From: Thermodesulfobacteriota bacterium
GTDB taxonomy: Bacteria; Desulfobacterota_D; UBA1144; Nemesobacterales; JAJCZQ01
Direction: 5' to 3'
Assembly: GCA_965215275.1 (NCBI GenBank)
Contig: OZ244044.1
Span: 1,504,001 to 1,568,000 of the forward strand
DNA length: 64,000 nt
The translations under genes were made by a program, and so were the position numbers. The first letter of the stretch is position 1, and every line of letters begins with the position of its first letter. The notes under the pieces were generated by a model. The model made no database searches and was not told where the DNA came from. It saw nothing but the letters and a program-made list of their open reading frames with translations. Shown piece by piece: positions 11,868 to 36,209 of the stretch.

Positions 11868-12060
11868 ATTAAAACTCCTTTCCTTAAAATAAAGATCAGT
11901 CTTGTCCCCTTCAGTTGTGTCGTAAATTCATAAATAGAAGAGTGCATTCTCTATTTCTTTAAAGATAATGAAAAATCCCCGTTTGTTAAGTTATTTTTAT
12001 AATTCCTAAAAACTTTAGGGGACTATCTACTTAAGTATCCCAAATTAAAAAAATAGTTAT

Positions 12061-12234
12061 TTATTTTTTTGGAACTCCTGTCTGAAATCCTCGTATATTT
12101 TCCTGAATATCCGATGTGTCATCTTTCCTTTGTTTTCTTATCTTTTTAACAGGTTTAACAGGAGAGACAACAGCTTTTACTATATCATCAAAAGAACCTG
12201 GTATATGTGGAATTATCTTTTGCTTTCTACCCAT
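12061..12234 (-). CDS. 57-aa basic microprotein of the IS1595 element (not in the ORF track)
   Basis: MGRKQKIIPHIPGSFDDIVKAVVSPVKPVKKIRKQ...; homolog at the same position in the second element. Confidence 0.7.
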   Translation of the reverse strand: MGRKQKIIPHIPGSFDDIVKAVVSPVKPVKKIRKQRKDDTSDIQENIRGFQTGVPKK

Positions 12235-12254
12235 TGGATTATTTTTTCTATTCG

Positions 12255-12857
12255 TTATTTTAGTTCTAGAAACCTACTTATAGCTCTGTCAAAAACATTT
12301 TTTATATCTCTATATGTCCATACAGTTACCATATCAGCATGTTCTGCTGTAGTAGTCCATTTTCTATGTGTTGGATTTTCACGTGTCGGAACAGGAGTAA
12401 GAGTCTTGCCTCTGCGTGGATTATCTATATAATCCTTTATATCTTTTTTTGTCTTTAGTGATAATTGAATAGTAGTAGGTGTAATTCCTAAAAAGATTAT
12501 AAAAGCATAATTATAATTTACTGGTATCCAATTAAATTGATATTTTCGTTTACTATCTAATGAAGCAAGTTTAACTTCTACCCTCTCTGGTGAAGTATTA
12601 TCTTTAAGAGTAACAAGTAAATCTGTATTATTACCGCCTCTTTGTCTTTGTCTACCTACAAATTTATTAACATAACCAAATTTAGACAGCCAATCACTTA
12701 CGATCTTCTCTCCAAAATCTCCTTTTTTAGGATTAGTAATCCGTTGTATATCACCATATGTTCGGTTTTCCCAAACTTGAACTATGCTATCAGATTCCGC
12801 TACTTCTTTTAAAATTTTTATAACATCATTTTGTATTTCTTTATCAAGAAATAACAT
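12255..12857 (-). CDS. Putative type II restriction endonuclease, PD-(D/E)XK fold
   Basis: KGDFGE...TDLLV...EVKLA motif pattern; directly downstream of an MTase. Confidence 0.7.
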   Translation of the reverse strand: MLFLDKEIQNDVIKILKEVAESDSIVQVWENRTYGDIQRITNPKKGDFGEKIVSDWLSKFGYVNKFVGRQRQRGGNNTDLLVTLKDNTSPERVEVKLASLDSKRKYQFNWIPVNYNYAFIIFLGITPTTIQLSLKTKKDIKDYIDNPRRGKTLTPVPTRENPTHRKWTTTAEHADMVTVWTYRDIKNVFDRAISRFLELK

Positions 12858-12865
12858 GTGAGTAT

Positions 12866-14011
12866 TTAATCCATAAATCCAACTTTAATCAACTCATCAT
12901 AAATAATATCTTTTCTTAAACTTCTACTGTTATTTGTAGATGTATGAACTACACTTGCCCAATCATGATTTTTGATAAACTTAAAAACACTTTTCTTTTT
13001 TCTTTTTATTACAATACCATAACCGTCATTGTAAGGTATATCGTAAAAATCCGTTGTGGCTACAGCGGTTTCTCTAGCCCAGAAAGTTCTGGGTAAATAT
13101 ATATCACACTTACCTATCATATTCATACGAGATGGAAAACGAGAAGGTTTGTATGGAATACAGATGTTATAAATATCTACATAAGTCCTACAAGACTTTT
13201 CATTTACAGGTTTATATGAAGAAGGAGTAGATTTTGCCCAAACTTGAAATACGGTTTTAACATTAATTTCTTCTCCATTAGGAAAAATAAAAGGATTATC
13301 GTTAAGTGTTTCTGTATGTAATAATATATATCCCATTTTTATCAATCTGTTTTTGCACGAACCTTTGCCAGTACTATCAAATATTGGAGGAAGTATAAAA
13401 GCTACATAGTCAGCAAATTCAAAAGATTTGACTACAAAATCCAAAGCGATCTTACCGTTTCTGCCAAAAGGAGGATTACCTATAACCACATATTTACCAG
13501 CAGGAGGTTGCCAAGTTAAAAAATCAGCTTGGATAATACCATCAATTAACTTATCAGTAAGTGGGGACTTTTTAGGTTGTATTTCAATCCCTAACCGATT
13601 ATTTTCGGGTAATAGAGAATAAAAATGACCACAACCTGCACTAGGCTCTACAAATGTATAATCTGAAATATCTATATTATATTTATCTAATGTTTTGTAA
13701 AATCTATTTATACAACTTTTAGCTACATCTGGCATTGTGTAGTATTGGTCAGCTTGTTTAATTCCAAGATTATACTCTCCATTTAAATTCAATATCCTTA
13801 ATAGATCGTTTCTATAAAAATCAGGAACTTGTTTTATTCTATCCCATCTGTCCACTGTTCCTTTATGAACAAGTAATAAATCGGCAATTTCTCTATTGCT
13901 TTTACTTTTTTGTAAATGAGCAAAAAGAGATAGTTCATCCATATTACTTGTTTGATATTCATCAAATATACTATCTGGAGTTGTATAAAATATTTCTTCT
14001 AAAGGTAACAT
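12866..14011 (-). CDS. Amino (N6-adenine-type) DNA methyltransferase, gamma motif order, with N-terminal HTH-like segment
   Basis: DQYYT, FVEPSAGCG (motif I), VIGNPPFG (motif IV); SNREIADLLLVHKGTVDRW HTH-like. Confidence 0.85.
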   Translation of the reverse strand: MLPLEEIFYTTPDSIFDEYQTSNMDELSLFAHLQKSKSNREIADLLLVHKGTVDRWDRIKQVPDFYRNDLLRILNLNGEYNLGIKQADQYYTMPDVAKSCINRFYKTLDKYNIDISDYTFVEPSAGCGHFYSLLPENNRLGIEIQPKKSPLTDKLIDGIIQADFLTWQPPAGKYVVIGNPPFGRNGKIALDFVVKSFEFADYVAFILPPIFDSTGKGSCKNRLIKMGYILLHTETLNDNPFIFPNGEEINVKTVFQVWAKSTPSSYKPVNEKSCRTYVDIYNICIPYKPSRFPSRMNMIGKCDIYLPRTFWARETAVATTDFYDIPYNDGYGIVIKRKKKSVFKFIKNHDWASVVHTSTNNSRSLRKDIIYDELIKVGFMD

Positions 14012-14012
14012 T

Positions 14013-14993
14013 TTAACCTATTAACTCCTTATATTTTAATCTTTTACCTTCCAATCTTTTACCTTCCAATCTTTTACCTTCCAATCTTTTAATAACCTTT
14101 TTAATCTGATCCATAGTAGGTAAAGGTCTGTTATTATGCCTTCCAGCATATTCATCTACATAGCGTTGTAGATGTTTCCTGCTCATGAAGTGGTATATCC
14201 CAGTATACCCTCTTTTAAGCATAGACCAGAAACTTTCCATCCCGTTGGTATGTGCCTGTTCCCTGATATATTCACCTACTCCATGATTAACTGTCTTGTG
14301 TTTATACCCTTTCTTGTTCAGTCCACTATACCCTCTGTTCTCGTCTGTATAAATAGTTGATTCAGCATCTACAGTTTTATCTATCAAACCTTCTAATGTT
14401 TTACTATCTACAACTTCAGTTACCTTTGCTTTTACCTTCTTATCTATCCTTGATTTAATACCTACTACTGCAGATTTAGTTTTAGTGCTTCTGCCTTGAG
14501 TCCCTTTAGTTCTATTGGATTGGTGCTTGTTCCTTTCAAGTCCACCAACATAGGTCTCATCAACTTCTACAGGAGATAACAACGGATTATCTGACTGCTC
14601 ATCAAACGATTCTCGTATCCTGTGACCCAAGAACCATGCTGTCTTCTGCGTTACCTCTACATCACTTGAAAGTTTTAAACTTGAAATTCCTTTAAGATTG
14701 GTATTCAGCAAGTAAATAGCCATTAGCCATTTATGAAGTGATATCTTGCTTTTGGCTAATACTGTGTTTGTTCTCACGCTGAAATACTTACGGCAATCTC
14801 TGCATCTGTAAGGCATCGTAGGATGTTTTATTTCTATTGTATTAAAACTTCCACAGTGAGAGCAGTATCTATCCTTACCATCTTTACCCCACTTCTGCTC
14901 CTCAAAACACTTTCTTGCTAATCCCTCATCTGGAAACATTTTAAAAAACTCATACAAACTAACTTTATCTTGTTTCGTTCTTTTTCTCATCAT
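14013..14993 (-). CDS. IS1595-family DDE transposase
   Basis: CSHC/CRDC zinc ribbon, HTH (QKTAWFLGHRIR), VEVDETYVGG, IYTDE, HTNGMESFWSMLKRG, HLQRYVDE. Confidence 0.95.
   Translation of the reverse strand: MMRKRTKQDKVSLYEFFKMFPDEGLARKCFEEQKWGKDGKDRYCSHCGSFNTIEIKHPTMPYRCRDCRKYFSVRTNTVLAKSKISLHKWLMAIYLLNTNLKGISSLKLSSDVEVTQKTAWFLGHRIRESFDEQSDNPLLSPVEVDETYVGGLERNKHQSNRTKGTQGRSTKTKSAVVGIKSRIDKKVKAKVTEVVDSKTLEGLIDKTVDAESTIYTDENRGYSGLNKKGYKHKTVNHGVGEYIREQAHTNGMESFWSMLKRGYTGIYHFMSRKHLQRYVDEYAGRHNNRPLPTMDQIKKVIKRLEGKRLEGKRLEGKRLKYKELIG
14038..14091. repeat. 15-bp tandem repeat (~3.6 copies) encoding KRLEG x3 at the transposase C-terminus
   Basis: AATCTTTTACCTTCC three times plus partial AATCTTTTA. 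Confidence 0.9.
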
Positions 14994-15170
14994 GGATATT
15001 ATACTACCATATATTATTAGTTTTTACAAGTAACTAATTTGAAAGTTTGGATACTTAAGTATATAGTCCCCAAACTTTATAGATAGCTGAGAATGAATTA
15101 ATGTTTTTTTCAATGAGTTTTAAACAGCTTCTGATTTGTCAAAATGACTTATACCACTTGTTAGTTTTTA

Positions 15171-28799: not shown

Positions 28800-29510
28800 C
28801 AGTTTGATTTATGGAGATGTTCGCTGGTGAGAGATCAGTGGGAAAACGGTTTGAAAGGCCGTTGTGTAGAGACGGGAGATATTGGCGTCATTGCGTCAGT
28901 GTCCGAAGTGGCAGTATAACAGCAACGGGCAATATATCGTTCAGGAAAAGGTTATTGGCAATATACCTGATAACTGCAGACTTAAAGGTATTATCCGGTC
29001 GTAAAACGGGAAGGTATACGGGAACTGTGCAAAGACAACTTGGTTTTGCTGCACGGGACAAGAAAGGCGTTTGAAGAGTAGTCAGATAATCCCTTACTGT
29101 CTCCAACAGAGGCAGGTGAAGTTCTATGTTGGCGGGGGTGGAAAAGAACGAACATGCCAGTAAAGCAAAGGAGGGAATACAAGGGAGAAGCACAAAGGAA
29201 AAGTCATCATCAGCAGGTATAAGATTAGGAGCAGACAGGAGGGTCAGGGTAAAGGCAACTGAAGCCATAAAAAGTGAGGCATCATAAGGTATGACGGACG
29301 GAAGTGCAGGTCTATATCAAAAGGGCAGAAAGTTTCCGGTCCGCGTTGCAAGAGATTTTGCAGGCGTGTATCACAAGATGTCAGGGAAACGTTTACAAAG
29401 ATGTACAGATGAGCATGCAGGAAGGCGTAACAACGGAGCATTACCGACCGTGGATCAGATCAAAGACGTGATCAGGGGATCGTGTGGCAAGAGAGATCAG
29501 ATACTGCTGA
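28800..29510 (+). pseudogene. Decayed IS1595-family transposase
   Basis: Collinear frameshifted fragments FMEMFAGE, SVRSGS..ISFRKRLLAIYL, SDNPLLSP, QGRSTKEKS, GVYHKMSGKRLQRCTDEHAGRRNN..LPTVDQIK match the intact transposases in this window. Confidence 0.85.
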
Positions 29511-29604: not shown

Positions 29605-32600
29605 ATGTATGAAAAACATGATGGACTCTATCCCCCCCCCCCCCGTCAATATAGTAGTTTAACGGGCAGTTCCCGCCGGAACGGCAGGAACCTTGTACTT
29701 TCCCTTGTCCTTTTTCTTCTGTGCATAATGATCACTGTTGCAGAGGGACAGGACAGCGTAAATGATCCGTTCTCCGAATGCAGGGTTATCAGTGCAGACG
29801 CGGAAGATCCGCTGTACGGATGTCAGTGGCATCTGAAGAACACGGGGCAGCTTGGTTTTTCCGGAAAAGCAGTAACAGCAGGAGAAGATATAAACGTAGA
29901 GGGAGTGTGGAACGAAGACGTATATGGTTCTGGAATTAACGTAGCAATAGTAAGTGACGGTATTGACCTTTCACATGAGGACCTTTCTGCTAAGGTCCGT
30001 TCCGGACTGAACTGGAGTTATTTTGAAAGAAATAATTCTGAAGAGAACAGTTCTGAAAAATATAATTCAGAAAGAGATGATCATTCAGACGGTTCATCCT
30101 TTACCGGAACACGAGCGGCAGGAGTAATTGCAGCAACTGGATATAACGGACTGGGAGTAAGAGGAACAGCACCTGGTGCGAGTATATACAGTTACAGGTT
30201 ATCCGGTGATCTCAGTGAAGCTGACGCAATGGTCCGTAATAAAGAAATAACCGCTGTATCGGTTAACGGCCGGGTATCTGAGGACGGAGCTTTTTTTCAG
30301 GAGGCTTCATCTGTCTGGGAAGAAGGATTGGATACGGGAATAAGGGAAGGGTTTTATGGGAAAGGTGTGTTTTACGTCTGGGGAGCAGGGGACGGTCACG
30401 AGAATAACGATCAGGCTAATTTTAATGAATATTCCAGCTATTACGGAGTAACAGCCGTTTGTTCAACGGACGGCTTTGGAAAGAAGAGTATATTTTCAGA
30501 AGAGGGAGTAAATCTCTGGGTATGTGCACCTGGTTCTGATATTGTGACCACAGATAACAACAACGATTACGTTGTAACATCCGGAACTGTCCTTTCAGCT
30601 TCACAGGTTGGAGGAGTGGCTGCACTGCTGAGAGAGGTTAATGGAAATCTGAGCTGGAGGGATATAAAGCTTATACTTGCGGGTTCAGCAAGGCAGAACG
30701 ACGTTTCTGACATGAGCTGGGAGACTGGAGCGGTTAAATACGGTTCTGACGTGGAAAGATATAATTATAATCCTAAGTATGGTTTTGGCGTGGTAGACGC
30801 AGAAGCAGCCGCAGAGCTTGCCGGAAGCTGGAAAGGCATCGGAGAGATGAGGACCATTACAGCTTCTTCCGATAATGAACTGACAATTCCTGATGGAGAA
30901 GGAGAAGCAGATGGAATACTTACCTCCACACTTGTGATACCGGACGTGGAGGAAATATTTACGGAATTCGTTGAGGTAGAACTTGTTTTTTCTCATGACC
31001 GCTTGCAGGACCTTGATATAAAAATAACCTCTCCTTCCGGGACAGTTTCTGAACTTGTCCGGGAATTTTCAGGTGAGGAAGAAGACGCTGAGATCAGTTA
31101 TGTAAGAAGAACACATCGTTTCGGGTCGGCTAAACACCTCGGAGAAGACCCTTCCGGTGAATGGACCCTTGATATATCCGATACTGCTTCCGGAGATGAA
31201 GCAGATGAAGAAAATACTTTTACCTTACACTCCTGGAGCATTAAGGTATACGGGAATTTTTATCAAGGACCTGGCAGGGAGATAACTACTAAAGCTTTAA
31301 ATTGGGGCGGACAGACAGTTCAGGATCAGGTGTACAGAGTAGGAACTCAGATAGCACCGTTACAGCTGCCTGAGGCGACCGGGGCAGAAGGAATAACGTA
31401 CAGTATGACACCTGATTTACCTGCTGGGCTGGAGTTTAACGATACCACCCGGGTTATAAGCGGAACCCCAACTAAATCGCAGTCTAATGAACGTTATCAA
31501 ATTGTTGCCAGAGACGAAAATGGAAACGTGAAGGGTTTAGCGTTCCATATAAGGGTAAGGTTCCGTAACTCCACAATACCGAGTTTCAGCGATACCATCC
31601 CGGATCAGAACTACGTAACGGGGAGAGAAATAACGCCACTGGTGTTCCCTAGTGCAACGGGAGGGGATGGTCAGTTAAGGTACACTTTTAACGGCACTTT
31701 AACTAACTTACCAAATGGATTGAGACTTACCAGTGATCCGTTCAGGATAAGAGGAACACCAGGTAGTGGTAGTGCGGGGACAAGTACCTGGCAATATACC
31801 GCTACTGACTCAGACGGGGATACTGCTACACTTGAGTTCAGGATAAGGATAAAAGCTGCAGCTGACGTTCCGAGCTTCGGCGGTCAGATGATAGATGATA
31901 AGTTTTATACGGCAATGGTTCAAATATCACCATTCACGCTACCTCTTGCAACGCAAGGAACTGGAATTACACTCAGGTTAACCCCTAATTTACCTGATGG
32001 ATTGAATTTTAACTTTGTCACCCAAGTGATAAGCGGAACACCAACTGCTGCGATGCCTAAGACTGATTATACATGGAGAGCAACGGACAGAGACGGATAT
32101 ACGGCTGAATTGACGTTCAGTATAACGATAACGGCCCTGTCCTTTGACGGGCAGGTACCTTCTTCTCCTGTTTTGTACTTGGCGGAGAGACCAGTAACAC
32201 CGTTAACACTGCCTGCTGCAACGGGAGGTACTGCTCCGTATACTTACGTTCTGACCCCTGAATTACCTGATGGACTGGACTTTAACGATACCACCAGAGT
32301 TATAAGCGGGACACCGACTGCTGCAACGCCCGTGAATACCTATACGTATACCGTTACAGACGCAGACGGAACTGAGACGGAGGTGACGTTCGATATTGCC
32401 GTAGCAGCACACTTTTCAGGCGTTGAGATAGAAAGCAGGTTTTACACGGTCGGTACGGCGGTAACGGAAACGCTGCCCGAGGCAATCGGACATAACGGAA
32501 CGGTAACGTACAGTTTAACTCCTGCCCCTCCTGCTGAATTGACCTTTACCCCTGCCACCCGGGTTATAAGCGGAACACCGACTGCTATACAGAAGAATGC

Positions 32601-33426
32601 GAGGCTTTATACGTATAGTGCTGCTACCGGTGCAGGTGTACCTGCTCGAACGTTGGTGTTCCATATCACGGTAAGAGATGAACCGGACACAAGGCCGAGT
32701 TTCGGCGGTGAGACGGTAGAAGATAAGGAATACATAATATCGGGAAGTCCGATAACCCCGTTCGTGCTGCCTGAGGCAACGGGAGGGAATGGAACGGTAA
32801 CATACAGTCTGACTCCTCGTTTACCAGACGGATTGATCTTTACGCCTGTTGATCGAGAGACAAGCGGGACACTGACTGCTGCGATGTCTGAGACCGATTA
32901 TACGTGGAGTGCCACGGACGAGGATAACGACAGGGCTGGGTTAACGTTCAGTATAACGGTGGAAGAGGACAGCGAACCGGCATTCAGCGTGACGACGATA
33001 GAAGATCAGGTGTACACGGGGGAAAGAATAAGGCTGCCGGTAGCAACGGGAGGGAACCCGCCGTTAAGATACAGTATAGATCCTCGTTTACCGACGGGAA
33101 TGAGATTGAACGAAGACACAGGGGTCATAAGCGGGACGCCCGCGAGTGCGTCACCTGCAACTTCTTACACGTACACGGTAACGGACAGGAATGGAGACAT
33201 GAAAGGGTTGACTTTCAGGCTCAGTGCAGAGGTTTCTTCTACTCCAGGACCAACAACAGGAAGACCAGGAACGTCAGGTAGTGATTCAGGCGGAGGTGGA
33301 GGAGGATGTGCCGTCTCAGATCAGAGCAGCACTGCTTCTGATATTCCCGGAGTAATTGCATGTCTGATACTTATTCCTGTATCAGTAGTGATAAAAAGGA
33401 AGAGAAGATCTCAGATAAAGACTTAG
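29605..33426 (+). CDS. Surface protein paralog 2: signal peptide, inactive S8 kexin-like domain, P-domain, 7 Ig-like repeats, GGGC-TM-basic tail
   Basis: DPLYGCQWHL, VAIVSDGID, TGTRAAG, GTVLSAS, YGFGVVDA; repeats with ISGTPT; GGGGGGCAVS...CLILIPVSVVIKRKRR. Confidence 0.9.
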   Translation: MYEKHDGLYPPPPRQYSSLTGSSRRNGRNLVLSLVLFLLCIMITVAEGQDSVNDPFSECRVISADAEDPLYGCQWHLKNTGQLGFSGKAVTAGEDINVEGVWNEDVYGSGINVAIVSDGIDLSHEDLSAKVRSGLNWSYFERNNSEENSSEKYNSERDDHSDGSSFTGTRAAGVIAATGYNGLGVRGTAPGASIYSYRLSGDLSEADAMVRNKEITAVSVNGRVSEDGAFFQEASSVWEEGLDTGIREGFYGKGVFYVWGAGDGHENNDQANFNEYSSYYGVTAVCSTDGFGKKSIFSEEGVNLWVCAPGSDIVTTDNNNDYVVTSGTVLSASQVGGVAALLREVNGNLSWRDIKLILAGSARQNDVSDMSWETGAVKYGSDVERYNYNPKYGFGVVDAEAAAELAGSWKGIGEMRTITASSDNELTIPDGEGEADGILTSTLVIPDVEEIFTEFVEVELVFSHDRLQDLDIKITSPSGTVSELVREFSGEEEDAEISYVRRTHRFGSAKHLGEDPSGEWTLDISDTASGDEADEENTFTLHSWSIKVYGNFYQGPGREITTKALNWGGQTVQDQVYRVGTQIAPLQLPEATGAEGITYSMTPDLPAGLEFNDTTRVISGTPTKSQSNERYQIVARDENGNVKGLAFHIRVRFRNSTIPSFSDTIPDQNYVTGREITPLVFPSATGGDGQLRYTFNGTLTNLPNGLRLTSDPFRIRGTPGSGSAGTSTWQYTATDSDGDTATLEFRIRIKAAADVPSFGGQMIDDKFYTAMVQISPFTLPLATQGTGITLRLTPNLPDGLNFNFVTQVISGTPTAAMPKTDYTWRATDRDGYTAELTFSITITALSFDGQVPSSPVLYLAERPVTPLTLPAATGGTAPYTYVLTPELPDGLDFNDTTRVISGTPTAATPVNTYTYTVTDADGTETEVTFDIAVAAHFSGVEIESRFYTVGTAVTETLPEAIGHNGTVTYSLTPAPPAELTFTPATRVISGTPTAIQKNARLYTYSAATGAGVPARTLVFHITVRDEPDTRPSFGGETVEDKEYIISGSPITPFVLPEATGGNGTVTYSLTPRLPDGLIFTPVDRETSGTLTAAMSETDYTWSATDEDNDRAGLTFSITVEEDSEPAFSVTTIEDQVYTGERIRLPVATGGNPPLRYSIDPRLPTGMRLNEDTGVISGTPASASPATSYTYTVTDRNGDMKGLTFRLSAEVSSTPGPTTGRPGTSGSDSGGGGGGCAVSDQSSTASDIPGVIACLILIPVSVVIKRKRRSQIKT
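29632..29644 (+). repeat. poly-C tract (C13) at the 5' end of paralog 2
   Basis: 13 consecutive C; in frame from ATG 29605, out of frame from ATG 29609. Confidence 0.9.
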
Positions 33427-33642
33427 CAGTGCGGTCCTTTCAAAGGCATTTCTGAGAAAGAATTACAGCCCGGTTTTCTTTTATATCAGTTATCAGTTCG
33501 TTGAAGAGAATGAATGTATTGCCGTGTGTTGAACCGTCTTGATATTCTGAACGGGTTGAAAGAACGGGACGAACGATCTCTGAACTGAGAAATTCATTAC
33601 TACGGAAAAATAAGGGGATTATATAGTTAAGTGCCGAAACCA

Positions 33643-33810
33643 CTATTTCTTTACTTTCGTGGTATTCCCTTTTGATTTTTTACTGTTTTGTTTTTTTATC
33701 TTCCGAACTTTATCATAATTAGGTTGTAATAATGTCTTTACTACTTCGTCCACTGTAGCTGGTATGTGTGAAATAAAGCTGTTTTTATAAGTTTTATCTT
33801 TTTCTGTCAT
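33643..33810 (-). CDS. 55-aa basic microprotein of the IS1595 element (not in the ORF track)
   Basis: MTEKDKTYKNSFISHIPATVDEVVKTLLQPNYDKVRKIKKQ...; stop 3 nt from the TIR; homolog of 12061-12234. Confidence 0.7.
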   Translation of the reverse strand: MTEKDKTYKNSFISHIPATVDEVVKTLLQPNYDKVRKIKKQNSKKSKGNTTKVKK

Positions 33811-33820
33811 TTTATCTATC

Positions 33821-34309
33821 CTATCTCGGATAAATTATAGTTCCCTTAGATTTAGCCCATCTTTCAGTAAACCCTACATGTGATATATCATTACTACTTC
33901 TATCCAGTTGTCTTTCTGTTTCTTTAACTACTATTTCTGGTTCTAATTCATATATTACTTTTACTCTTGTCTGATCATATTCATAAAAAATAGCTAAATA
34001 TATTTTACTATTTCTCCTTATACGATTTAGAGATTCCTGTCTTTTATCAGGAGGAGATTTAAACATCCTGTCTAACTGACCCGTGCCACCTTCCTTACAA
34101 GACAAATATTCATAAACTATATTATGATCTTTAAAATCTCTGGCATCTGCATCTCTTTTACTGTGTATAAGTTCATGTCCCAATAAATCAGCTATTATCA
34201 TCTCTTTAACTAATCCAGGTTGTAGTAAATTATATATACCCATTGATTTGGCAAGATCAGCTGCTTTTAACACTAAATCTATTATCCTGCGATAGATGTT
34301 AGATGCCAT
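33821..34309 (-). CDS. PvuII-like type II restriction endonuclease
   Basis: Size and motifs DLAKSMGIYNLLQ, DARD..YEYLS, IYELEP, KGTIIY parallel R.PvuII as recalled (DLALKHGINDIFQ, DAVD..YELKS, IYRLEP, HGTKIY); overlaps the MTase 3' end. Confidence 0.72.
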   Translation of the reverse strand: MASNIYRRIIDLVLKAADLAKSMGIYNLLQPGLVKEMIIADLLGHELIHSKRDADARDFKDHNIVYEYLSCKEGGTGQLDRMFKSPPDKRQESLNRIRRNSKIYLAIFYEYDQTRVKVIYELEPEIVVKETERQLDRSSNDISHVGFTERWAKSKGTIIYPR

Positions 34310-35088
34310 TCTATCTCCTCTTTATATTCTGAATTTATTCTGGATCTAGATAAATCAATATATCTATCATTAATTTCAAAAGCTATAAAATCCCTTTTGT
34401 AATTTTCACATACTACAGCTGTAGTTCCTACACCTGAAAATGGATCAAGCACAACATCACCTTCATTAGAACTTGCAAGAACTAATCTTTCTATTAACTT
34501 CTCTGGCTTTTGTATGGTATTAAGAAGTTCTCTTGATATTAACTCTTTTGATTTATAGGTTAATTGTTTAACATCTCCCCATACATCACCTGGATTCTTG
34601 CCTTTAGTATTAAACTTAGTTTTATTAAATTTTCCATTAGTTACAGAGGGAACATTTTCACATCTTTGTCTATGTGTTAGTTCTACTAACTGTGGAACTC
34701 TGATATCATCTAAATTAAAACATTTTGCTTGTTTACCTTTAACAAAGTAATAGATAATATCGTAATTGTTTGTGTATTTTAGTTTACCTTGAGATAACCT
34801 GCTTGGCTGGTACCATATTATTTTAGATTTACAGTTTAAATATTTTCTATAATCTACAAAATCCAAACAATCAGGTTTACCGAACAAATATAAAGTTCCG
34901 CCTGTTTTTAATTTAGGTTCAAATTTCTTTAACAGATTAAGATTAAACTTTTGAATACTTGGAATACGGTCCCAATCATTATCAGTAACTCCGTAAGGAC
35001 CATCACATATAATTAAGTCAATAGATTTATCGTCTACTTTCTTGATTAAATCTAACGCATCCCCACAGTAAAATTCGTTTAATTTCAT
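34282..35088 (-). CDS. Beta-class N4-cytosine/N6-adenine DNA methyltransferase
   Basis: IDLIICDGPY (motif IV variant), GKNPGDVW, QKPEKLIERLV, VLDPFSGVGTT (motif I). Confidence 0.92.
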   Translation of the reverse strand: MKLNEFYCGDALDLIKKVDDKSIDLIICDGPYGVTDNDWDRIPSIQKFNLNLLKKFEPKLKTGGTLYLFGKPDCLDFVDYRKYLNCKSKIIWYQPSRLSQGKLKYTNNYDIIYYFVKGKQAKCFNLDDIRVPQLVELTHRQRCENVPSVTNGKFNKTKFNTKGKNPGDVWGDVKQLTYKSKELISRELLNTIQKPEKLIERLVLASSNEGDVVLDPFSGVGTTAVVCENYKRDFIAFEINDRYIDLSRSRINSEYKEEIEWHLTSIAG

Positions 35089-35090
35089 TT

Positions 35091-36029
35091 CTAACTGATC
35101 AATTCTTTGTATTTAAGATGCTTACCTGACAAACCTTTAATAACTTTTTCGATCTGATTCATAGTATGTAAAGGACGGATGTTATGCCTGCCCGCATACT
35201 CATCTACATAGCGTTGTAGATGTTTCCTGCTCATGTAGTGGTATATCCCAGTATGTCCTCTTTTCAGCATAGACCAGAAACTTTCCATCCCGTTGGTATG
35301 TGCCTGTTCCTTGATATATTCACCTACTCCGTGATTAACTGTCTTGTGTTTATACCCTTTTTTATTCAGTCCACTATATCCTAAATTCTCATCTGTATAG
35401 ATCGTTGATCCGTCTTGAACTGTTTCCTTAATCATATTTTGCAGTTCATCCTTCTTAACGGTTTCTGTTACTTTTGCTTTAACCTTCTTATCTACTCTTG
35501 ACTTAATACCTACTACGGCAGATTTAGTTTTAGTACTTCTGCCCTGTGTTCCCTTCACTTTTTTACTGGCATGCTTGTTTCTCTCAAGTCCGCCAACATA
35601 AGTCTCATCCATCTCTATTGGTGACATTAAAGGATTATCTGATTGCTCGTCAAATACCTTCCTTATTCGGTGTCCTAAATACCAGGCTGTCGTTTGAGTA
35701 ACTCCTATATCTCTTGCCAACTTATGACTGGATACTCCCTTTAAGTTGGTAGTCATCAAATATATAGCTAATAACCATTGATGCAAAGATAAATTACTAC
35801 CTTCAAATACAGTGCCTGTTCTGACACTAAATCGTTTATCACAATCTTTACACCTATAAGGCATGGTAGCATGTTTAGCTTTAGAAGTTCTTACACTTCC
35901 ACAACGAGGGCAACATTTATACTCATTATCTTCACCCCAGAGCATCTTCTCAATATGTTTTCTTGCTGATTCCTCGTCTGGAAACATTTTATTAAAATCA
36001 TATAAACTAACTTTTTTTCTATGTGCCAT
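35091..36029 (-). CDS. IS1595-family DDE transposase
   Basis: CPRC/CKDC zinc ribbon, IEMDETYVGG, IYTDE, HTNGMESFWSMLKRG. Confidence 0.95.
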   Translation of the reverse strand: MAHRKKVSLYDFNKMFPDEESARKHIEKMLWGEDNEYKCCPRCGSVRTSKAKHATMPYRCKDCDKRFSVRTGTVFEGSNLSLHQWLLAIYLMTTNLKGVSSHKLARDIGVTQTTAWYLGHRIRKVFDEQSDNPLMSPIEMDETYVGGLERNKHASKKVKGTQGRSTKTKSAVVGIKSRVDKKVKAKVTETVKKDELQNMIKETVQDGSTIYTDENLGYSGLNKKGYKHKTVNHGVGEYIKEQAHTNGMESFWSMLKRGHTGIYHYMSRKHLQRYVDEYAGRHNIRPLHTMNQIEKVIKGLSGKHLKYKELIS

Positions 36030-36209
36030 TTACTTCTCCTTCGTTTATCTTATGGTAAAATCTTACCATTTTTAACTTGATAAATCAAGTCATTTTCGGC
36101 ACTAAACTATATTGTTCCCTAAGTTATATATGTGATCTTCTGAATATCCCGTTTGCTAAAGTATATTACTCCCTAAAGATTTAACAGGAATATCCCTGCT
36201 CCGTTTCTT

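Follow-up and report, generated by a model that had tools for sequence, protein, structure and literature searches.

Two IS1595 elements in the 64,000-nucleotide stretch of Thermodesulfobacteriota DNA analysed here (the window) each end in a very short open reading frame, which raises the question of whether these frames are genes and, if so, what they do for the elements that carry them. The sequence-only reading had proposed a core second gene of the element, possibly a small DNA-binding regulator or a transposition accessory factor. It had placed the 57-aa and 55-aa ORFs correctly, both on the minus strand and thus on the strand of the transposase (Table 1). The shared motifs and basic tails that it described are present in both, and BLASTP aligns the two over 33 aa at 42% identity (E 1.4e-6). 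No cross-match among the four cargo proteins of the two elements was better than E 0.7, confirming that the adjacent cargoes are unrelated. Each microprotein gene is the last gene before the right repeat, with gaps of 20 and 10 nt to the preceding ORF in elements 1 and 2 and with stop codons 43 and 29 nt from the respective element ends. The description of that preceding ORF as a restriction endonuclease stands less well, as the match in element 1 is weak and the 162-aa ORF of element 2 matched no Pfam, NCBIfam or PADLOC model, so that its label was given by position alone.

Table 1. Positions of the two elements, their genes and related loci. Positions without a prefix are those of the window; prefixed positions are those of the sequence named.
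Feature	Position	Strand	Remarks
Element 1	12018-15071		transposase, methylase, probable restriction enzyme, microprotein 1
Right terminal inverted repeat, element 1	12018..12041		22/24 vs left repeat
Left terminal inverted repeat, element 1	15048..15071
Target duplication, element 1	12010-12017 and 15072-15079		AAACTTTA; perfect, 8 bp (8/8)
Transposase 1, IS1595 DDE	14013..14993	minus	326 aa; PF12762 E 6.6e-42, NF033547 above cut-off
Type II DNA methyltransferase (cargo)	12866..14011	minus	381 aa; PADLOC MTase_II E 4e-45
Probable type II restriction endonuclease (cargo)	12255..12857	minus	200 aa; PADLOC REase_II E 1.5e-5
Microprotein 1	12061..12234	minus	57 aa; final gene
Microprotein 1 conserved core, I11-P25	12160-12204	minus
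Element 2	33614-36119		transposase, N6/N4 methylase, 162-aa orphan, microprotein 2
Right terminal inverted repeat, element 2	33614..33637		20/24 match
Left terminal inverted repeat, element 2	36096..36119
Transposase 2, IS1595 DDE	35091..36029	minus	312 aa; AlphaFold model pLDDT 85
N6/N4 DNA methyltransferase (cargo)	34282..35088	minus	268 aa; PF01555 E 1.2e-38
162-aa ORF (cargo)	33821..34309	minus	family-less
Microprotein 2	33643..33810	minus	55 aa; final gene; AGGA 5' of the start codon
Microprotein 2 conserved core, I16-P30	33721-33765	minus	
TnpB-like units	G000:C1:155905-157223, 202418-203706, 714634-715929, 1441464-1442782, 1724035-1725337
TnpB-like units, further	G000:C1:82022-83929, 327508-328825, 772121-773673, 1041602-1043154		loci L018-L020 cited for the nine units
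Fusion to BstA	L100:7914-8972		helix is N-terminus; PADLOC E 6e-114
Fusions to Bro-N proteins	L074:6629-7639, L075:7851-8963		helix is N-terminus
Fusions to C5 methylases	L106 from 7915, L032 from 1466		helix is N-terminus; L032 by eye

IS1595 elements are bacterial relatives of the eukaryotic Merlin transposons. Both transposases score 143-144 bits against PF12762 (cut-off 27), with 194 bits against NF033547 (cut-off 75). The N-terminal zinc ribbon PF12760 reaches 32.3 bits in transposase 2 (cut-off 25.4) and 19.8 bits, below the cut-off, in transposase 1, which nevertheless has both CxxC pairs and the motifs EVDETY, YTDE and NGMESFW. Near the C-terminus of transposase 1 a KRLEG unit stands three times in tandem (14013-14080, minus strand) where relatives have it once, adding 10 residues. 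Transposase 2 is 72% identical to transposase 1 and 95% identical to a sister copy found at another site of the genome, and the solved folds nearest to its model are retroviral integrases and ISCth4 (TM ~0.2-0.36). The inverted repeats of both elements start with GG, and methylases and a probable restriction enzyme lie inside them; the target duplication is not preserved at element 2 (4/8). As IS1595 and transporter IS are characterized in PMC8101967 and PMC5704250, both elements belong to IS1595 and are transporter IS, the term used there for IS1595 members with passenger genes such as MTnSag1/tISSag10 and tISCpe8. The shared features are a DDE_Tnp_IS1595 transposase with an N-terminal zinc ribbon, inverted repeats of ~25 bp, passengers and, at element 1, the 8-bp AT-rich target duplication. 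Unlike the transporter IS described there, the elements here keep a lineage-inherited second small gene whatever the cargo. Four runs kept as contigs, from one study, span element 1, and a joint across an empty site is found in none of them.

The substitution pattern of the short frames is that of a protein-coding gene. Identity at codon positions 1, 2 and 3 over 41 cores is 0.47, 0.63 and 0.29, and the other reading frames each contain a stop in 17 to 35 of the 41 sequences. For 820 core pairs pS is 0.76 and pN 0.46, and for 16 disjoint sister pairs on the transposase tree the core values are 0.712 and 0.301, compared with 0.715 and 0.217 for the transposase, figures that are somewhat inflated by selection of the cores through their motif. 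In a single sister pair, the one with microprotein 1, pN exceeds pS (0.40, 0.32). These values indicate that the gene is under codon-level purifying selection, and the codon-level conservation on which the earlier proposal had been staked is thus found (core pN 0.30 against pS 0.71). An SD-like motif lies 5' of 29 of the 67 starts (4 of the 67 imperfectly placed) compared with 132 of 1315 random ATGs. Boxes resembling a -10 element 5-9 nt 5' of the start are found at 3/67 starts and 16/1315 controls, ruling out a leaderless promoter of its own as the general arrangement, and promoter scans of elements 1 and 2 gave site counts no higher than shuffles.

Nor is the pair confined to the window, as the source genome holds some 20 further copies. 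An iterated profile finds 21 segments at E<0.01 in the 1.99-Mb genome, and a broader family profile finds 23 places at E<0.05, and an inverted-repeat-like end lies no more than 130 nt from 18 of these; on reversed sequences the broader profile finds nothing at E≤1. With that many matches, most of them near repeat-like ends, and an empty reversed control, the pair is not a product of chance. Viewed from the transposase, a profile match lies downstream on the same strand in 18 of the 24 loci with a transposase of at least 600 nt that reaches the C-terminus. The remaining six comprise three with a truncated or frameshifted copy, two with unrelated small basic ORFs at this place and one remnant without the gene. 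In cargo-less copies the microprotein gene is directly 3' of the transposase gene. A 245-bp miniature element (L010, G000:C1:1903208-1903452) contains the microprotein gene, with a strong SD, as its sole gene between two repeats, and its flanking duplication matches at 5/8. Nine other units with IS1595-type inverted repeats hold a TnpB-like gene alone, without DDE transposase or microprotein (Table 1). All three that were tested match TnpB Pfam domains, and since five of the nine have a perfect 8-bp duplication, these units were probably mobilized in trans.

Beyond the source genome, 91 and 126 small homologues came up in database searches, and two of these are named, both as "hypothetical protein", one of them from a Candidatus Dadabacteria MAG. 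For an estimate that does not start from the microprotein, the best 80 of 604 loci from a transposase alignment were used, a choice that covers many phyla and is biased to this IS1595 clade; in 49 of the 80 the ends were set by repeats and the 8-bp duplication independently of the microprotein. By eye, the gene is present in 43 of these 49 elements (41 free and 2 fused to cargo, with about five divergent calls), and the other six have either an unrelated ORF at the end (two) or none (four). Inside the ends the profile matches in 14/49 at E≤0.01 and 19/49 at E≤1, compared with one and three matches, respectively, in flanking DNA 3.8 times longer and a best E of 1.7 on the reversed control; the profile was seeded from database and own-genome proteins, some of which may share genomes with the scanned loci. 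Among 20 transposase loci from related genomes five have a clear microprotein (all of them seeds), four a weak one and three unrelated small ORFs, and the microprotein was not found in the other eight, two of which are intact elements whose transposases share 52-53% identity with transposase 2. In the reverse direction, 14 of 22 microprotein matches in 20 loci, one of which repeats an element already counted, have a transposase or its remnant within ~6 kb, and three of the remaining eight have a repeat-like end within 35 nt. A transposase adjoins the match in 13/13 loci inspected for fusions. Of 120 genomes of the phylum, 27 have a profile match, most of the 27 being from one genus, and of 50 genomes selected by transposase 42 have one; tblastn with one member each against plasmids and phages gave no match.

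The microproteins have a median length of 57 aa (range 36-80, 46 curated), and the sole conserved part is a 15-residue core, h-x-x-[TS]-P-E-x-h-A-[RK]-A-h-h-x-P, which forms an N-capped amphipathic helix with ~12 helical residues and a hydrophobic moment of 0.53 compared with 0.31 for shuffled sequences. The motif HIPx[ST]xD[DE]xVK, put forward earlier as a family profile, suits the local subtype alone. The flanks of the core are of low complexity and mostly basic, with tails that cannot be aligned, and the net charge has a median of +6 and ranges from -14 to +12, being negative in 5/46. GRP occurs in 75, GRK in 88, either of the two in 163 and RGRP in 67 of 263 sequences (GRP in 14/46 curated); microprotein 1 has GRK and microprotein 2 has neither GRP nor GRK. 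The subtypes diverge 5' of the helix, where they read IP[DAG]T, YQP[ST]KAE, NPRY or, in an antisense form that overlaps the transposase 3' end, GATPETLA. Orientation and context also vary, with same-strand, antisense and cargo-fused forms. For same-strand copies the stop lies within 70 nt of the right end in 26/33. Where a nearby upstream ORF is present, the microprotein starts within 15 nt of its stop in 20/51. In the fused forms (Table 1) the helix starts the first cargo protein and the elements lie basal on the transposase tree; a single-sequence fold of the BstA fusion was unusable (pLDDT 36). Two unusual arrangements were also seen, an outward-pointing copy upstream of the transposase (G002:C17:1331175-1331246) and a locus with two divergent copies (L162), one of which runs into a 172-aa ORF with, by eye, a hydrophobic stretch and a lipobox-like motif.

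The microprotein is inherited with the transposase. On a transposase tree of 46 tips the subtype changes 8 times compared with a shuffled mean of 23.3 (minimum 17), and the host group changes 21 times compared with 29; on a 57-tip tree, with ISPepr2 and ISRm32 as outgroup, there are 9 subtype changes compared with 26.7. By these counts the subtypes track the transposase tree more than the host, each of them spanning 4 to 7 host groups, a result that speaks of vertical inheritance with the transposase and is no proof of co-evolution because kin share labels. In ISPepr2 and ISRm32 the transposase extends as far as the right repeat, and the gene would not fit in. Small and mostly basic ORFs are also found at L014:222-383, L015:157-342, L025:378-551 and, antisense after the transposase, in L021, and the right ends of L087 and L099 likewise have small ORFs, with no detectable similarity to the microprotein family; these end ORFs of more distant IS1595 lineages are possibly analogous accessory genes.

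The gene is a dispensable accessory part of the element. One genome (G130) holds an element without it in at least 14 near-full copies, 7 of the 9 fetched having repeats that match at 19-20 of 20 positions and distinct duplications, and a second element without it in 4 full copies; this genome has other microprotein subtypes as well, which could be trans-acting. Elements that have the gene also multiply, to 7, 10 and 16 copies, so the direction of its effect cannot be read from copy number. The claim of a core second gene rather than cargo therefore holds in that the gene is element-borne, codon-conserved, fixed in place despite changes of cargo and follows the transposase tree, and "core" in the sense of required is too strong, considering the 4/49 end-defined elements and the 8/20 related loci where it was not found and the multiplied gene-less element. 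The latter (L092, L171-L179) is a 1.4-kb IS1595 in which a (GT)n tract precedes an antisense methylase fragment; the tract varies in length among copies and shifts the reading frame.

These observations lead us, tentatively and with a little less than even confidence, to regard the microprotein as a widespread accessory family of one IS1595 clade whose helix likely docks on the transposase of the same element and likely adjusts the frequency of transposition, probably downwards. The microprotein would usually be translated from the transcript of the cargo and transposase genes, or else from a separate antisense unit. The hydrophobic face of the helix would be a protein-binding surface, because a helix of 15 residues is too small to fold alone, and the partner may well be the transposase, as no other product is constant and the subtypes keep to its lineage even where the host phyla are unrelated. 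The basic tails, some of them with RGRP, may contribute non-specific DNA contact. Given that elements without it still multiply, the microprotein would modulate rather than catalyze. Whether it brakes or helps is the least certain step of this explanation, a brake being probable. A bolder form of the proposal, which we hold more loosely still, makes a large clade of IS1595 a two-gene system in which the second gene encodes a peptide-sized, lineage-specific ligand of the transposase with a single helix, either an assembly cofactor or an anti-transposase, that is trans-acting, flippable and repeatedly grafted onto BstA, Bro-N and methylases; such grafting, if true, would couple these proteins to the transposase. 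No in-frame fusion of transposase and microprotein was found in 13/13 loci, 9 of them picked for long open frames, and no longer homologue among 7992 candidates scored, a weak test. Mutual information between transposase and microprotein over 41 paired rows peaked at z 6.5, inside the 4.9-7.9 range of shuffled maxima. Mimicry of the transposase C-terminal helix (T-x-D-Q-M-x-x-V) was considered and rejected, there being no profile similarity (hhalign probability 0.3%).

Of the two roles offered earlier, the accessory factor is the better one, if an inferred one, and the DNA-binding regulator the weaker. A small repressor in the manner of IS605 Arc, oligomerizing through the helix and with the transposase promoter or the inverted repeat as its DNA target, is an unlikely alternative to docking on the transposase, even though the tails are basic and the GRP and GRK motifs presumably resemble the core of an AT-hook. 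The AT_hook family has no Pfam match among 39 members, none of the HTH, RHH and AT-hook families matches more than 1 of the 39 in Pfam or any in NCBIfam, and the conserved part is a single short helix that cannot be a folded DNA-binding domain. The tails are unalignable, several members have a net negative charge, and the gene is usually located at the end opposite the transposase promoter. That accessory repressors of IS exist is shown by Arc, a small accessory gene which, according to the preprint (bioRxiv 10.64898/2026.09.24.754181), is dispensable for mobility and restrains its element. Arc as described there is a ribbon-helix-helix promoter repressor, in contrast to the one conserved helix of the microprotein, which matches neither RHH nor HTH.

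Somewhat less likely again is an adaptor through which the element would use a conserved host protein, such as a protease, RNA polymerase or a nucleoid or replisome protein. Linear binding motifs are usually short portable helices, which is the form seen here, and the helix persists when fused to unrelated cargo. Transposases do employ short host-binding motifs, for example the beta-clamp motif (PMC3971601), but the core is unlike the clamp motif QL[SD]LF, and the subtypes lie closer to the transposase than to the host, each occurring in several host groups. We consider it improbable that the microprotein serves the cargo as a regulator, chaperone or antidote for restriction-modification or other defence genes. 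The cargo is often a methylase or defence gene, the last cargo stop codon is often overlapped by the microprotein gene, and fusions to BstA and methylases exist in some elements; against this, the gene is kept in cargo-less elements (L001, L002, L005, L007, L011, L013, L028, L090) and beside unrelated cargoes, and its product is not an HTH C-protein. A role in target selection, with the microprotein directing the transposase to AT-rich DNA, is more improbable still. The duplications are indeed AT-rich (0.75-0.81 AT compared with ~0.42 in the flanks) and some copies have GRP or GRK, but the 11 elements with the motif have a target AT content of 0.75, the 27 without it one of 0.78 and the 11 scored as gene-less one of 0.81, the last a small control because 5 of these 11 were later found to have a free or fused copy, and copies of the gene-less L092 element also lie mostly in AT-rich duplications. 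A conserved sub-terminal DNA or RNA signal with an open frame by chance would account for the fixed place near the right end and is scarcely credible, in that third codon positions are near random and second positions conserved, all synonymous codons are used in the cores, both orientations occur and Rfam has no match in 7 loci.

Docking on the transposase would place the microprotein among element-encoded small proteins that modulate their own transposase, such as IS1 InsA and IS3/IS911 OrfA. InsA and OrfA arise by frameshifting and represent the N-terminal portion of their own transposase, whereas the microprotein gene is separate, downstream or antisense, and without similarity to the transposase in the hhalign comparison. 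Another precedent is IS91 Orf121, a conserved accessory protein with a gene coupled to the transposase gene that is reported to inhibit transposition and improve excision accuracy (PMC13181058), and as a precedent for inhibitory accessory IS proteins it was counted in favour of the docking proposal. Orf121 accompanies a transposase of the HUH family, has 121 aa and is encoded upstream of tnpA; its likeness to the microprotein is a functional analogy alone. Accessory regulators of IS, such as Orf121 and Arc, are already known as a kind.

The microprotein family itself is apparently undescribed, a real gene family of a known transposon family. The 39 members scanned match no Pfam or NCBIfam family (best single match E 0.008), PHROGs gave no family (1/41 members at E 0.044), the best sequence match in the PDB (E 0.046) was judged to be chance, and the ESM Atlas holds unnamed clusters only (scores 0.86-0.91). 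Among the matches listed in full-text literature searches, most of them on IS1595, there is no description of the gene, although the family-defining Siguier 2009 may mention such ORFs. Since IS1595 has been described as single-gene elements with optional passengers, a conserved second gene alters the annotation of the family. Genes of this size usually go unannotated or unnamed, and this one marks the ends of elements as well as orphan ends. If it does bind the transposase, the core would be a natural 15-residue handle on DDE transposases of a family without a close solved relative in the fold search. The elements ferry restriction-modification and anti-phage genes between distant phyla, and a regulator of their movement therefore bears on the spread of defence genes in dense communities.

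The window also contains a third, broken IS1595 transposase remnant (28808-29494, plus strand) with stops inside and the right end absent. It lies directly 5' of a 1273-aa ORF (29605-33426) that by eye is S8 protease-like with repeats, and similar transposase remnants lie 5' of look-alike starts elsewhere in the genome.
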